Part shown: positions 123 through 55,036 of the stretch, piece after piece
How the letters are laid out: the number at the start of each line of letters is the position of its first letter
How positions within the stretch are numbered: the stretch's first letter is position 1
DNA from: a virus
Length of the DNA: 55,688 nucleotides
Strand: one strand, 5' to 3'
IMG/VR virus record: IMGVR_UViG_3300033127_000028
Coordinates: 1-55,688 of that record
Notes under the pieces: generated by a model
What the model was told of the DNA's origin: nothing
Database searches by the model: none
The model's input: the letters and a program-made list of their open reading frames with translations, nothing else
Position numbers and translations under genes: made by a program

Positions 123-138
123 TTACAGATATGTGTAT
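123..138. promoter_or_regulatory. Operator-like palindrome TTACAGATATGTGTAT upstream of the integrase gene
   Basis: Member of the TTACA-N6-TGTAA family seen in about 12 intergenic places. Confidence 0.4.
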
Positions 139-157
139 TTTGAAAGGAAGTAATCAC

Positions 158-1642
158 ATGAGGCGGAAGAAATCAGCTATATATCTGAGGAAATCTAGGT
201 CAGATGAGGGTATTGAGGCTCTTAGAAAACATAAAGAAATGCTGATAAGATTAGCTGATAGTAAAGGGCTACACTATGAAATATATGAGGAGATAGGGTC
301 ATCTATCAGCCTTGATGTAAGGGATGAGCTAAACAGGCTCTTTGCTAACATTGATCAGTATGAGAATGTCATTGTAATGGACATAGATAGGCTATCAAGA
401 TCATTAGCAGACATGGAGCAGATTAAAAACTTATTCATAGATAAAGAGATAAAGATAATCACTCCTAGTCAGGTCATTGATTTATCTGTAGACTCTCAGG
501 AGCTTATGGTGGACTTTCAGTCTGTTATTGCCAATGCAGAGTATAAGCAGATAAAGAAAAGGATGAGAAGGGGAAGAATAGAGGGAGCAAGAGCAGGGAA
601 CTGGGTGGCAGGTGTTACTCCTTTAGGTTACAACATAGACAAGAAGTCTAAGAAACTTGTTCCTAATAAAGATGAGCTGCCTTTAGTTAGGGAGATATTT
701 AGAATGGCTCTAACTAATCAGACACCTGCTGACATATCTGATCAGTTGAATAAAAGGGGATATAAGACAAGGAAAGGTAACAAATTCACAGCTTATGCTA
801 TTCAAACTATTCTTTCTAACATGGCTTACATTGGTTATGTTGTATACAGGGAGAATCCTGATATAAAAGGTAGGAAGCCTGAGGAGGTAGTCACTCCCAA
901 TGCTCACACTGCTATTATCTCTGAGCTTGATTATCTTGAGGTACAGAAACTGCTTAAAGCTAGGAGGACTAATCATGGTAGAAATTCAGCTCTTTATAGG
1001 ACTTATCTGCAAGGTCTAGTCTTTTGTGCAGAGTGTGGAAGGCAAATGACTATACAGTTTACCAGTGCTGATAAAGAGGGGAGAAATGTGGATAGCATAA
1101 ACTTTCAAGCCTGTAGGACTGAGGGCTGTAAGACTCAAGGTATTAGCTGTAAAGAGGTTGAGGAGGCTGTCAGGGTAGAGCTTTACTCTTTGAAATCAAA
1201 AGTATTCCATCAGTTTCAGCAGTTAAAGGGTCAGGATAACAGGGGTAAAGAAGTTGAATACTCCACACTTATTGCAAAGCATCAGTCTGAAATTAAGAGG
1301 GGGGAGGGTAAGCTAGACAACCTCCTAGACCTGCAATTAGATGGGGCTATTGATAAAGATACCTACAGCAAAAAGAAAGCAGAGATACAGCAGGACATAC
1401 AGGAATTAAGGCAGGAAATTAAAAGGCTTGAGCTGTCTATTCAAAAGCTTGATAAGGATAGTCAATCTAATATGCTGCTGCACACAATGAGAATGATAGA
1501 CAAGATAGACATAATGGATAAGGAGGAGGCAAATAGGTGGTTAAAAACCATTATAGCTAGGATTGAATACAGTAGACCTAAGCCTAACTCCTTGAGAAGA
1601 AGTGCAAAGGGTGAGCCAGTAATCAATATAATTGCAATGTAG
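158..1642 (+). CDS. Large serine recombinase (integrase)
   Basis: AIYLRKSRSDEG and DIDRLSRS resolvase core, a recombinase domain, a Cys-rich zinc ribbon (CAECG..C..C) and a C-terminal coiled coil. ATG 158 has a GAAAGGAAG RBS; the track ORF starts at TTG 110. Confidence 0.9.
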   Translation: MRRKKSAIYLRKSRSDEGIEALRKHKEMLIRLADSKGLHYEIYEEIGSSISLDVRDELNRLFANIDQYENVIVMDIDRLSRSLADMEQIKNLFIDKEIKIITPSQVIDLSVDSQELMVDFQSVIANAEYKQIKKRMRRGRIEGARAGNWVAGVTPLGYNIDKKSKKLVPNKDELPLVREIFRMALTNQTPADISDQLNKRGYKTRKGNKFTAYAIQTILSNMAYIGYVVYRENPDIKGRKPEEVVTPNAHTAIISELDYLEVQKLLKARRTNHGRNSALYRTYLQGLVFCAECGRQMTIQFTSADKEGRNVDSINFQACRTEGCKTQGISCKEVEEAVRVELYSLKSKVFHQFQQLKGQDNRGKEVEYSTLIAKHQSEIKRGEGKLDNLLDLQLDGAIDKDTYSKKKAEIQQDIQELRQEIKRLELSIQKLDKDSQSNMLLHTMRMIDKIDIMDKEEANRWLKTIIARIEYSRPKPNSLRRSAKGEPVINIIAM

Positions 1643-1643
1643 G

Positions 1644-1666
1644 GGAGCAGACAGCTCCTTTTTTTG
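1644..1666 (+). terminator. Rho-independent terminator after the integrase gene
   Basis: GGAGC-agaca-GCTCC followed by a T7 run. Confidence 0.7.
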
Positions 1667-1712
1667 TATATAAATTTGTCTCAAAAAAGTATCGAAAATT
1701 ACACATATACTG

Positions 1713-1741
1713 TTTACACATATCTGTAATCGTGTTATAAT
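1713..1741 (+). promoter_or_regulatory. Class I sigma-A-like promoter with embedded operator (upstream of hicA)
   Basis: TTTACA-N17-TATAAT. The spacer contains TTACACATATCTGTAA. It is preceded by the A-tract motif TCTCAAAAAAGTATCGAAAAT. Confidence 0.6.
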
Positions 1742-1764
1742 AAGTTATAGAAAGGGGGGAGAGA

Positions 1765-1953
1765 GTGAGATACAGAGAAGTAAGAAAGGCTCTTAGCAAG
1801 GGTGGCTGTGAGATACTTAGACAGAAAGGCTCACATGTTATATGGTACAGCCCAGTGACTGACAAGGTATTCCCAGTACCTAATCATCCTAGTAAGGACT
1901 TACCTAAACCTTTACTAAAAGCCATACAAGAACAGTCAGGGATTAAGCTCTAG
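1765..1953 (+). CDS. hicA: HicA-family mRNA interferase toxin
   Basis: 62 aa with REVRKALSKGGCEILRQKGSHVIW...HPSKDLPKPLLKAI, a typical HicA/YcfA signature. GTG start. Confidence 0.8.
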   Translation: MRYREVRKALSKGGCEILRQKGSHVIWYSPVTDKVFPVPNHPSKDLPKPLLKAIQEQSGIKL

Positions 1954-2036
1954 GAGCTTTCCCTGCTCTTTCTTAAACTGTATAATATCATATGCGATAC
2001 AGTTTTTAAAATACTTTCTCTAGGAGGTTTCACTGT

Positions 2037-2321
2037 ATGCCCATGTATAAATTTTATGCAATGATTGACAGAGAGAATTTAGATGGTACAGGTCATTACA
2101 TGGTCAGCTTTCCTGATGTAGAGAACTGCTTCACTTATGGTGAGGATATGCAGGGGGCTGTAAGTAATGCTCATGATGCTCTCAGAGAGCTTTTAATTGT
2201 TGAGGAGCAGAGGGGTAAGGAAATTCCTAAAGCCTCTAAGCTGCCTGATTTAGAACTTAAACAGGGTGCAAGTTATGTGCTGATTGAAGTAAATACAGAT
2301 GTTAAAAGAGAGGCTGTGTAG
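2037..2321 (+). CDS. hicB: HicB-family antitoxin (short form, no obvious DNA-binding domain)
   Basis: YMVSFPDVENCFTYGEDMQGAVSNAHDALRELL resembles the HicB N-terminal fold. It lies directly downstream of hicA and has an AGGAGG RBS. Confidence 0.7.
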   Translation: MPMYKFYAMIDRENLDGTGHYMVSFPDVENCFTYGEDMQGAVSNAHDALRELLIVEEQRGKEIPKASKLPDLELKQGASYVLIEVNTDVKREAV

Positions 2322-2374
2322 TTGCAGCCTTTTTCTTTTTGTTTAACTTATCTCAAAAAAGTATCAAAAATATA

Positions 2375-53589: not shown

Positions 53590-53738
53590 TAAGGGGCGGG
53601 TGGCTATCAATTGGCTGCCCTTCCTTTATCTGTAGCATAAGGGGGGAAATTTAGAGTTGATTTAAGCATAAAGGTGTATGAGTCAAAGTTGTTGAGGTTT
53701 TTTTTAGTGAGTTTGAATAGAAATTAATGCCTACATAA

Positions 53739-53761
53739 GAGAGCCTTTGGCTCTTTTTTTT
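53739..53761 (+). terminator. Rho-independent terminator
   Basis: AGAGCC-ttt-GGCTCT followed by T8. Confidence 0.7.
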
Positions 53762-53780
53762 ATGCTTTTTTTTTAATGGC

Positions 53781-53816
53781 TGTCACACTTTTTCTGAACC
53801 ATCTAATTAAGGAGTG
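53781..53816 (+). promoter_or_regulatory. Class II phage promoter-like element (variant)
   Basis: TGTCACA-N15-CTAATTAAGGAGTG. Confidence 0.5.
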
Positions 53817-53856
53817 TAAGCAAGAATAACAAAAACATTTTAGGAGGTCATTTTAA

Positions 53857-54213
53857 ATGACAAAAACTTACACACACTTATCTAGCACAGAATTAGTATC
53901 AGAAATCACTACAGGCATTAAAAACTCTATCACTATTGTAAAGCAGCTTGAGGAAATGGCTGAGCAGCATCAAGTGGTATCAGAAAAAGAGGTAGTGGAG
54001 CAAGCAGGAGCAGCTATGATGTTTATTCTTGAAATGACCTTATCTAAAGTTAATGATTTGTTAGGAGAGGTTGATAATAGACAAAACTCTGAAATGATCA
54101 TAGAAGCACTTTTAGCTAAGTTAGATGAGTTTATGAAGGTTGATGGTCAGTACTTTGTGTCTGCACTACTTCTTACAGGTACTATCAGCTTGGGTGAATT
54201 ATTCAGTGTCTAA
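53857..54213 (+). CDS. Hypothetical protein (118 aa)
   Basis: AGGAGG RBS. Confidence 0.55.
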   Translation: MTKTYTHLSSTELVSEITTGIKNSITIVKQLEEMAEQHQVVSEKEVVEQAGAAMMFILEMTLSKVNDLLGEVDNRQNSEMIIEALLAKLDEFMKVDGQYFVSALLLTGTISLGELFSV

Positions 54214-54235
54214 GGTTAGAGAGGAAAGACCTCAG

Positions 54236-54721
54236 GTGGCAGCTAATCAAGGTAAGATAACAACTAAAGAAGGTAAGGGGCTGAGGGTTTACCTAGCCTC
54301 CCCTTTCTTCTCTGAGGAGCAGATTGCAGAAGTTGAAAGACTTGAGCAGGCTCTTATCAGTAATCCACATGTGTCAGAGGTATTCTCTCCTATGAGGAAT
54401 CAGATTGACTCTTTAGAGTTTGGCTCACTTGAGTGGAGACAAGCTATCTTTAAAAATGATGTCACTCATATTGACTGGGCTGATGTTGTAGTAGCAGTGC
54501 ATGACTACTTTGATGATAAAACTGATGCAGGTACAGCATGGGAAATGGGCTACACTTTTGCAAAAGGTAAGCCAGTGTTTCTGCTGCAAGAGAAAGAAGG
54601 AGTACCAGTTAACTTGATGCTAAGTGAGAGTATTGTGGCTTACTTTGTAAAAGCTGATGAGGTTGCTGAGTATGACTTCACTAACCCTCAGAACATTAGA
54701 TTTTATGGGGAGGTATTCTAA
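54236..54721 (+). CDS. Nucleoside 2-deoxyribosyltransferase
   Basis: VYLASPFFSEEQ, VFSP, the D...D and GTAWEMGY..GKPV motifs of the NDT family. GTG 54236 after GAGAGGAAAG; the track ORF starts at 54140. Confidence 0.65.
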   Translation: MAANQGKITTKEGKGLRVYLASPFFSEEQIAEVERLEQALISNPHVSEVFSPMRNQIDSLEFGSLEWRQAIFKNDVTHIDWADVVVAVHDYFDDKTDAGTAWEMGYTFAKGKPVFLLQEKEGVPVNLMLSESIVAYFVKADEVAEYDFTNPQNIRFYGEVF

Positions 54722-54945
54722 TGAGCCTCTTTAAGAGGGAGAAAGTTGAAAGAGTCATTGAAAGTACTGAAATTGTTGGCATCAGTGATGAGGTAGCTAA
54801 AGATGTTGCCATTGCCCTTCTAAAGGGGGAGGGTACTATCACTGACTGGGATGCTGAGAATTGGTGGGGTATAACTAAAGAGACAGCTAAAATCAGGCTC
54901 TCTGATAAATACACAGTAACAATTGAGAAAAATGAGTCCTACTAA
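54721..54945 (+). CDS. Hypothetical protein (74 aa)
   Basis: ATG overlaps the upstream stop (TAATG). Confidence 0.5.
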   Translation: MSLFKREKVERVIESTEIVGISDEVAKDVAIALLKGEGTITDWDAENWWGITKETAKIRLSDKYTVTIEKNESY

Positions 54946-54978
54946 AACAGTAGGGCTTTTCTTTTTATAGATAAGTGC

Positions 54979-55036
54979 TTTACAGATAAGTGTAATAAAT
55001 GATATACTCCTCTTATCAAATTACATATATGTGTAA
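54979..55036 (+). promoter_or_regulatory. Class I promoter with two operators
   Basis: TTTACA-N17/18-TATACT with TTACAGATAAGTGTAA (54980) and TTACATATATGTGTAA (55021). Confidence 0.5.

Follow-up and report, generated by a model that had tools for sequence, protein, structure and literature searches.

A repeated palindrome, very probably an operator, at promoters and the sigma-factor gene of a temperate Bacillaceae phage

In the temperate Bacillus phage SPbeta one repressor, MrpR, which has a recombinase-like fold and not an XRE-type helix-turn-helix (HTH), reads a repeated element at many promoters. In PBSX, as described in PMC8347963 with reference to Wood 1990 and McDonnell 1994, the Xre repressor keeps the sigma-like factor Xpf off and Xpf turns on the later genes. 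Here we describe a palindrome, TTACA-N6-TGTAA, that recurs upstream of several genes, that of a phage sigma factor among them, in the IMG/VR virus record IMGVR_UViG_3300033127_000028 (positions 1 to 55,688; this whole stretch of 55,688 nucleotides is called the window below). The palindrome is very probably an operator. Its best explanation, which we hold with moderate confidence, is that it serves a dimeric HTH repressor of the phage, most probably the XRE-family protein encoded at 49705–50133, and that this repressor gates a sigma-factor cascade. The likeness to PBSX would consist of an XRE-family repressor encoded on the opposite strand, several palindromic operators and a phage sigma-like factor that switches later genes. 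The likeness drawn here is one of cascade layout (an XRE protein, a sigma-family factor and a separate promoter class), and the connection between the sigma factor and its promoters is one that we infer.

The motif scan that the first-pass annotation of this DNA had proposed gave eight exact copies of TTACANNNNNNTGTAA (TTACA-N6-TGTAA), at 1714, 2376, 10351, 38742, 38908, 38973, 54980 and 55021, where dinucleotide shuffles yield a mean of 0.10 and a maximum of 3. With up to one mismatch allowed, 19 copies are found against 3.9 expected, and the credible additions among them (123, 38778 and 50203) stand beside the same genes; a weak one-mismatch copy at 51255, within an open reading frame (ORF), is probably due to chance. 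All 11 credible sites are intergenic, as had been claimed, and fall into seven clusters. With seven independent clusters and an intergenic share of the window of about 12.6%, chance placement has a probability of about 0.126^7 = 5e-7. The annotated sites at 123, 1714, 2376, 10351, 54980 and 55021 were recovered; those placed at 38751, 38787, 38906 and 50205 were 2–9 bp off and begin at 38742, 38778, 38908 and 50203, respectively. The entry at 1699 is a half-site only, and the degenerate sites suggested at 39890–39975 reduce to one weak matrix match of 10.1 bits and no credible site.

The 11 sites give the consensus ATTACA-s-ATAT-s-TGTAAT, or in matrix form (A/T)TTACA-[C/G/T]-ATA(T/A)-(G/c)-TGTAA-T. 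The arms are unchanged in 10–11 of the 11 window sites and the centre is nearly invariant (A11/T11/A10/T7 of 11). The element is thus a dyad of 16–18 bp with arms TTACA/TGTAA and an N6 centre, its two half-sites being roughly a helical turn apart, within the 14–18 bp expected of operators for XRE proteins. The sites and the promoters to which they belong are as follows.

123–138: operator TTACAGATATGTGTAT, one mismatch, between the promoter-like TAGACA-17-TATAAT (80–108) and the integrase start at 158, at about +8 to +23.
1699–1708: left half-site TTACACATAT, abutting the hicAB operator at 1714; no full palindrome.
1713–1741, plus strand: hicAB promoter TTTACA-17-TATAAT; the operator (1714–1729) provides the −35 hexamer and fills the spacer.
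2375–2403, plus strand: orf2479 promoter TTTACA-17-TATGAT, with operator 2376–2391 and the upstream A-tract element CTCAAAAAAGTATCAAAAA.
10350–10378, plus strand: promoter of the small serine recombinase gene, TTTACA-17-TATGAT, with a perfect palindrome at 10351–10366.
38742–38757: sigma-leader operator 1, covering the spacer and −10 of TTGTCT-18-TAATAT.
38778–38793: sigma-leader operator 2, one mismatch, 36 bp past operator 1.
38908–38923: sigma-leader operator 3.
38973–38988: sigma-leader operator 4, 65 bp past operator 3, with the start codon 55 bp downstream.
50203–50218: XRE operator whose left arm is degenerate (TTTCA); in the transcript of the XRE gene it falls at about +15 to +30.
54979–55008, plus strand: orf55055 promoter TTTACA-18-TATACT, with operator 54980–54995 in the spacer.
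55021–55036: second orf55055 operator, 13 bp past the −10 and 18 bp ahead of the start codon, without promoter context of its own.

As the first-pass annotation had it, the palindrome lies upstream of the integrase, hicAB, orf2479, small recombinase, sigma-factor (39028) and orf55055 genes. Its description of this set as an immediate-early and lysogeny group is a guess, as the small recombinase heads the packaging/structural block. A promoter scan that made no use of the palindrome returned four sigma-A-type promoters with the palindrome in the spacer (1713–1741, 2375–2403, 10350–10378 and 54979–55008), in agreement with the earlier figure of at least four, and all four carry TG upstream of the −10. 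In each of them the −35 hexamer is a T followed by the left palindrome arm TTACA, and the right arm lies within the spacer. Four further copies (123, 38778, 50203 and 55021) follow a −10 and have no promoter of their own, some of them at about +8 to +25; copies in this second position argue for a protein site that stands by itself and is more than a piece of a promoter. Sites that overlap core promoter elements or the transcription start are thus found in the window, and in the relatives, too, the operator makes up the −35 and spacer of many promoters. The right arm, TGTAAT, might be taken for a −10 hexamer, but the G at position 2 led us to reject this.

The same promoters provide what can be said for the notion that no protein reads the palindrome and that it is just the core of a copied promoter cassette. 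The 2376 and 10351 promoters have about 90 bp in common (window 2340–2425 and 10315–10400), including the A-tracts and the first 15 transcribed bases, and the same cassette is found in a Priestia prophage (L028, 17160–17250), where the upstream A-tracts GTCTCAAAAAAGTNTCAAAAA, the operator, TGnTATGAT and the first transcribed bases ATACA(A/G)AGTTAAGG all recur. We nevertheless consider this explanation very unlikely: there is no cassette around the sites at 123, 38778, 38908, 38973, 50203 and 55021, a promoter has no need of dyad symmetry, and between lineages the arms are retained while the flanks have diverged. As a separate observation, the cassette reaches beyond the operator on both sides, with phased upstream A-tracts (CTCAAAAAAGTNTCAAAAA) and a conserved beginning of the transcript (ATACAAGTTAAAGA), the latter of which could be a further regulatory element.

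The conservation was followed in relatives drawn from IMG/VR contigs of isolate genomes, from assemblies of Neobacillus vireti, Priestia megaterium, Rummeliibacillus stabekisii and Heyndrickxia, and from metagenomes; a metagenome scan with the XRE alignment added five loci, three of them informative. Protein identities to the window are 40–90% overall and 60–90% in the syntenic relatives. In syntenic prophages of the Bacillus subtilis group, Neobacillus, Priestia, Rummeliibacillus and Heyndrickxia the palindrome occupies the same places in intergenic DNA that has otherwise diverged. The four-site sigma leader of the first-pass annotation is kept in all four lineages from which a leader was retrieved, and the last site is always 55–60 bp ahead of the start codon. 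From site to site the window has 36/130/65 bp, two relatives have 37/116/65 and 37/116/64, and L100 has 35/121/67. In the Neobacillus leader the first and last sites pass the scan and the inner two are 17-bp variants read by eye. In relatives the homologue of orf55055 is preceded by two copies and the recombinase gene by one to three that abut, and the XRE promoter has one or two; the Priestia prophage has 15 copies at up to one mismatch where 1.8 are expected. The left arm reads TGACA in Priestia and Rummeliibacillus, where it is placed inside a consensus TTGACA −35, and the distantly related integrases of these two prophages have no operator upstream.

The centre of the palindrome is of the ATAT type at all window sites and TATA in all relatives (consensus TTACAGTATACTGTAA), and because of this difference the window sites score poorly on the matrix of the relatives. 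A coordinated change of the centre at a dozen sites argues for a reader that is encoded by the phage and co-evolves with its sites. Exact 16-mers of either type are multi-copy in IMG/VR solely in this phage family, all other matches being single, and an IMG/VR search for a second lineage with the ATAT centre gave only single chance matches. A literature search on the motif strings found no relevant paper, and a general one on Bacillus prophage sigma/XRE operators nothing specific.

The abutting copies at the recombinase gene, two or three in some relatives, together with the position of the best palindrome just upstream of that gene in the window, recall res and might suggest that the palindromes are res- or hix-like sites at which the small serine recombinase (10413–11171) recombines DNA or binds as an accessory. 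Dimer sites of serine recombinases of the resolvase/invertase family measure about 26–34 bp, with half-sites of 12 bp. The palindromes, at 16–18 bp and scattered over seven loci, do not have this form, and the L029 locus has the motif and no recombinase within 20 kb, so that we give this explanation hardly any credence. The gene itself stands directly ahead of the terminase genes, and in the relatives L031 and L032 it stands directly before the large terminase, without a homologue of the HTH protein encoded at 11299–11739.

The most heavily furnished target is the gene of the presumed sigma factor, and with it a second promoter class has to be introduced.

39028–39765, plus strand: sigma-70-family phage factor of 245 aa, the main proposed gated target.
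4445, 7217, 7556, 8346, 34465, 39775, 41840, 43326, 45436, 47961, 50274, 52390 and 53803, plus strand: the copies of the class I repeat.

Profiles, homologues and fold matches concur with the earlier naming of the 39028 product as a sigma factor. Taken alone, the protein has no Pfam match above threshold, and TIGR02937 aligns over the full length below its cut-off (E 1e-3); Sigma70_r2 is found in all six homologues examined (best 2.4e-7), one homologue carries the NCBI name 'sigma factor', and the top PDB matches of the profile are SigI6, WhiG, SigK and SigW. The structural model, of moderate quality (predicted local distance difference test, pLDDT, 70), has sigma factors for all of its top 50 Foldseek matches, with about 240–300 columns aligned. 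Profiles and model together thus place the protein in the sigma-70 family, with regions 2 and 4 both assignable. The same protein is also encoded on a metagenome-assembled contig of 55,663 bp; a protein search of the phage collection and a scan of the genome collection with the sigma alignment gave no match. The class I repeat, TGTCACA(G/C)-N15/16-CTAACTAAGGAGTG, is present in 13 copies, 8 of which match the 14-mer exactly. Every copy is on the plus strand, and they stand immediately upstream of operons for replication, nucleotide metabolism and accessory functions. The class I promoters are probably the regulon of the phage sigma factor.

In the leader of the sigma gene TTATTGCC, right before operator 3, is kept in three lineages. 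Rfam contains no known leader RNA that matches ahead of the gene. Positions 38860–38925 (compare L009, 1690–1735, and L100, 2850–2880) contain a weak hairpin and its T-run as well as an ORF of 14 codons preceded by a strong ribosome-binding site; the hairpin (38862–38885) has a z of −1.8 against shuffles, below the usual threshold, and is equally weak in the relatives. As it folds no better than shuffles, it was not accepted as a terminator.

The candidate for the reader of the palindrome is encoded on the other strand.

49705–50133, minus strand: XRE-family HTH protein of 142 aa, candidate repressor.
50236–50264, minus strand: XRE promoter TTGCAA-17-TATGAT, in face-to-face overlap with the −35 element (TGTCACAG) of a rightward class I promoter.

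The first-pass annotation had proposed this protein as the repressor, and two results favour the proposal: it is the one classical repressor-type HTH protein that the Pfam scans revealed, and its phage-context homologues have the operator at their own promoter. Its domains (HTH_3, 7e-8; HTH_26, 1e-7) are those of a Cro/C1-type HTH protein. In the model (pLDDT 90.7) the HTH core superposes on C.Esp1396I, SinR and the 434 and lambda repressors (prob 1.0) and also on CylR2 and SaPI2 Stl. No known structure matches the parts N- and C-terminal to the core; the C-terminal 45 residues form two helices. The gene is the sole leftward one in the early region, and its neighbours encode a 167-aa protein without a family match and a deoxynucleoside monophosphate (dNMP) kinase, with no ImmA/IrrE-type metalloprotease gene adjacent as in an ImmR/ImmA pair. 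The recognition helix, R(V/I)G(T/S)(V/I)S(Q/E/D), is near-invariant across lineages, in parallel with the invariant arms; the window protein alone has GSVS where the other lineages have GT(V/I)S.

The strongest support for the XRE protein as reader is the linkage, in sequence, of the operator to the XRE promoter, which is seen in every phage-context homologue, in 10 lineages (the window and nine others, L060 included) and down to 44% identity. At the L029 locus, whose backbone is unrelated, the XRE gene adjoins a tyrosine integrase gene, and its cassette-type promoter bears two operators that are perfect and abut; over 20 kb this locus has in common with the window only the XRE gene, a hicB-like gene and a fragment (56 residues) of the gene adjoining XRE. 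On this evidence the XRE protein is probably the binder of the palindrome. A conserved CTGTGACA in the spacer of the XRE promoter was considered as a second operator and rejected, since its reverse complement is the −35 element of class I; a true operator does overlap it in Priestia, Neobacillus and Rummeliibacillus.

The operator might be real and yet be read by some other protein, either a factor of the Bacillaceae host or one of two phage products, the HTH protein encoded at 6048–6437 and the protein encoded at 50871–51215. Phages from five or more host genera have identical TTACAG/CTGTAA arms, which is what one would expect of a conserved host factor; there are orphan XRE homologues without the motif, and the assignment of the binder is itself an argument from sequence context. 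The coordinated shift of the centre between lineages speaks against such a reader, as does the confinement of the multi-copy motif in IMG/VR to this phage family. The L029 locus retains the motif and the XRE gene and neither of the other candidates within 20 kb, and the other HTH proteins resemble terminase-small-subunit or transposase-type HTH domains. Well-described sites of Bacillus regulators include those of LexA (CGAAC-N4-GTTCG), the Spo0A box (TGTCGAA), those of CodY and CcpA, and the direct repeats of WalR; to our knowledge the palindrome matches none of the Bacillus regulator sites, which again makes another reader less attractive. We consider another reader unlikely and return to the XRE protein. 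As to the 50871–51215 product, it is a protein of 114 aa with 47–78% identity in relatives, whose C-terminal half resembles by eye sigma region 4 or a LuxR-type HTH; its only family match is a very weak one to an extracytoplasmic function (ECF) sigma model (E 0.077), and it is possibly a late-gene regulator.

In the mechanism that we propose, a repressor dimer, most probably of the XRE protein, would occupy ATTACA-s-ATAT-s-TGTAAT on host sigma-A-type promoters in either of two positions, over the −35 and spacer, where repressor and RNA polymerase would compete for the same DNA, or right behind the start of transcription (about +8 to +25). Repressor bound at the operators would switch off the integrase, hicAB, orf2479, packaging-block recombinase and orf55055 promoters, occupation of the four leader operators would shut the phage sigma gene, and the XRE protein would also limit its own promoter (autoregulation). 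The 13 class I promoters, which serve replication and nucleotide metabolism, would be silent in the absence of the phage sigma factor, so that one repressor would hold the programme; that holding down the sigma gene amounts to holding down the programme is structurally plausible. Binding, repression, the identity of the reader and the role in lysogeny are all things that we infer from the sequence.

Several observations weigh against this mechanism. Two of the targets, hicAB and orf2479, look like genes expected to be expressed in a lysogen and fit a lysogeny repressor poorly. No clear sigma-A promoter is found near leader operators 3 and 4, and it is a guess that these two act as a roadblock or by looping. 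Two chromosomal orphan XRE homologues (L058 and L059, in Rossellomorea and in a metagenome-assembled genome), with 51–55% identity and nearly the same recognition helix, have no palindrome upstream. The Bacillus subtilis group likewise has named XRE homologues, and full-length ones with 53% identity occur in the jumbo Takahashivirus phages Goe21 (L025, 3001–3402) and Internexus (L026, 3001–3333). These are the closest homologues from cultured phages, and no palindrome is found in the Goe21 and Internexus neighbourhoods examined. The co-variation of operator centre and recognition helix seen in the sequences comes from a single lineage. Finally, the XRE protein has no S24 peptidase domain (only HTH Pfam families at E <= 0.01), and Pfam scans of the regulatory regions revealed no ImmA-like protease or antirepressor.

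Some of these observations would suit an XRE protein that does bind the palindrome and acts in the lytic cycle, as a Cro- or controller-like regulator that shuts off the early genes by negative feedback, and not in the maintenance of lysogeny. Sigma-A early promoters would be turned off once the phage sigma factor has taken over, and the closest structures include controller proteins with timed feedback. The full-length homologues mentioned above belong to phages of the PBS1/AR9 type, which we take to be virulent, and the protein comes without a cleavage domain or antirepressor in the Pfam scans and has targets, hicAB and orf2479, that are unlikely to be silenced in a lysogen. The class I promoter placed over the XRE promoter could, moreover, silence the XRE gene once phage sigma factor is made. 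The layout, on the other hand, with a strong sigma-A promoter of its own for an XRE gene that is the sole leftward early gene, is the usual one for a maintenance repressor. Given a serine integrase and relatives integrated as prophages, some repressor must exist, and no other candidate was found. We therefore judge a purely lytic shut-off role to be improbable and keep to the XRE protein as the candidate lysogeny repressor.

The overlap of the two promoters deserves a closer look. The sigma-A promoter of the XRE gene on the minus strand and the class I promoter on the plus strand (TGTCACAG at about 50251 and CTAACTAAGGAGTG at 50274) share window positions 50236–50290, and both CTGTGACA in the XRE promoter spacer and the face-to-face overlap are conserved in all lineages examined. 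With the class I −35 inside the spacer of the XRE promoter, the two promoters overlap face to face, which suggests that they exclude each other. This opens a view, doubtful in our estimate, of a switch that does without Cro and in which promoters for two sigma factors compete, repressor and sigma factor forming a two-node mutual inhibition: phage sigma factor that escapes repression would shut repressor synthesis by promoter occlusion, and the repressor would block the sigma gene through its four operators.

The first-pass annotation had noted half-sites related to TTACAG in the iterons at 34.2 kb. The TTACAG/CTGTAA arms are indeed present there, in four dyads of the GTTACAGAAACTGTAAC type (34230–34380) upstream of an HTH_36 replication gene; the spacing is N5 and not N6, which marks a separate element. 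The same iteron sequence is found in the relative L004 (about 5190–5370), whose operators have the other centre, and iterons that stay unchanged where the operators differ again point to a separate element. They probably form the origin, and their reader would be the HTH_36 replication protein encoded next to them.

The remaining features give the context of the genome and its host.

158–1642: large serine integrase gene, start codon at 158.
2037–2321: HicB gene, of a HicA/HicB pair.
3233–4321, minus strand: Rap protein of 362 aa, RapH_N plus TPR.
10413–11171: small serine recombinase gene, Resolvase plus HTH_7, with a 60-aa N-terminal extension.
Elsewhere in the genome: DnaB helicase, primase and DNA polymerase A genes, and two tRNAs, which are also the sole Rfam matches.

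The first 55 bases of the window are identical to the last 55 (1–55 and 55634–55688), a direct terminal overlap, and the genome is circularly closed at about 55.6 kb (or carries a terminal repeat). By virtue of this closure the integrase gene comes after orf55258 across the junction. HicB, with 94 aa, has a HicB-like fold only and no DNA-binding domain was found in it; the hicAB promoter carries the phage operator, and hicAB may be regulated by the phage repressor instead of by its own antitoxin. The Rap protein indicates a Bacillaceae host. It is part of a Rap-Phr cassette (3098–4321, minus strand) in which an ORF of 44 codons that begins like a signal peptide (MMIITTALLIGSLFSIPAAA...) comes after Rap, and which possibly provides the phage decision with an input of cell density. 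When 18 kb of the window were compared as DNA with the phage collection, only tRNAs matched, and no close cultured phage emerged. The phage family is temperate, widespread in Bacillaceae and uncharacterised, and the present analysis supplies a concrete, proposed wiring diagram for it, with one XRE protein, about a dozen operators, a sigma factor and 13 promoters. The operators and promoter cassettes could be used as parts in Bacillus genetics, and the ATAT and TATA operators, with near-identical recognition helices on the protein side, constitute a small natural experiment on how the centre sets specificity.

Compared with known systems, this is probably a repressor–operator regulon of the expected kind that involves no new mechanism, and its closest counterpart is the Xre/Xpf pair of PBSX. 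With the lambda and 434 CI-Cro systems it has in common the HTH fold, here of a presumed dimer, palindromes of 14–18 bp over −35 and −10 elements and a predicted autoregulation at the repressor's own promoter. It differs from them in that the phage here has no S24 cleavage domain and no divergent Cro-like partner, the divergent promoter being the class I promoter of the dNMP kinase operon, and in that the operators stand at seven scattered loci and not in two clusters. The controller proteins C.Esp1396I and C.AhdI are the best matches of the XRE HTH domain in both sequence and structure, and they are small autoregulating dimers that use palindromes with AT-rich centres on promoter elements; the window protein has extra N- and C-terminal segments, a different half-site and no restriction enzyme gene beside it. 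The repeated element of SPbeta is unrelated to the palindrome, and the genomes are not homologous (no phage DNA match in the collection search). PBSX itself differs, as here four operators lie in the leader of the sigma gene itself, 11 kb from the repressor gene, and further ones are found at the integrase, a toxin-antitoxin pair and other genes. What sets this phage apart from the known systems is the lack of a cleavage domain, protease and Cro in combination with the four-operator leader, the placement of HicAB under a phage operator and the overlap of the candidate repressor's promoter with one of the probable phage-sigma class.

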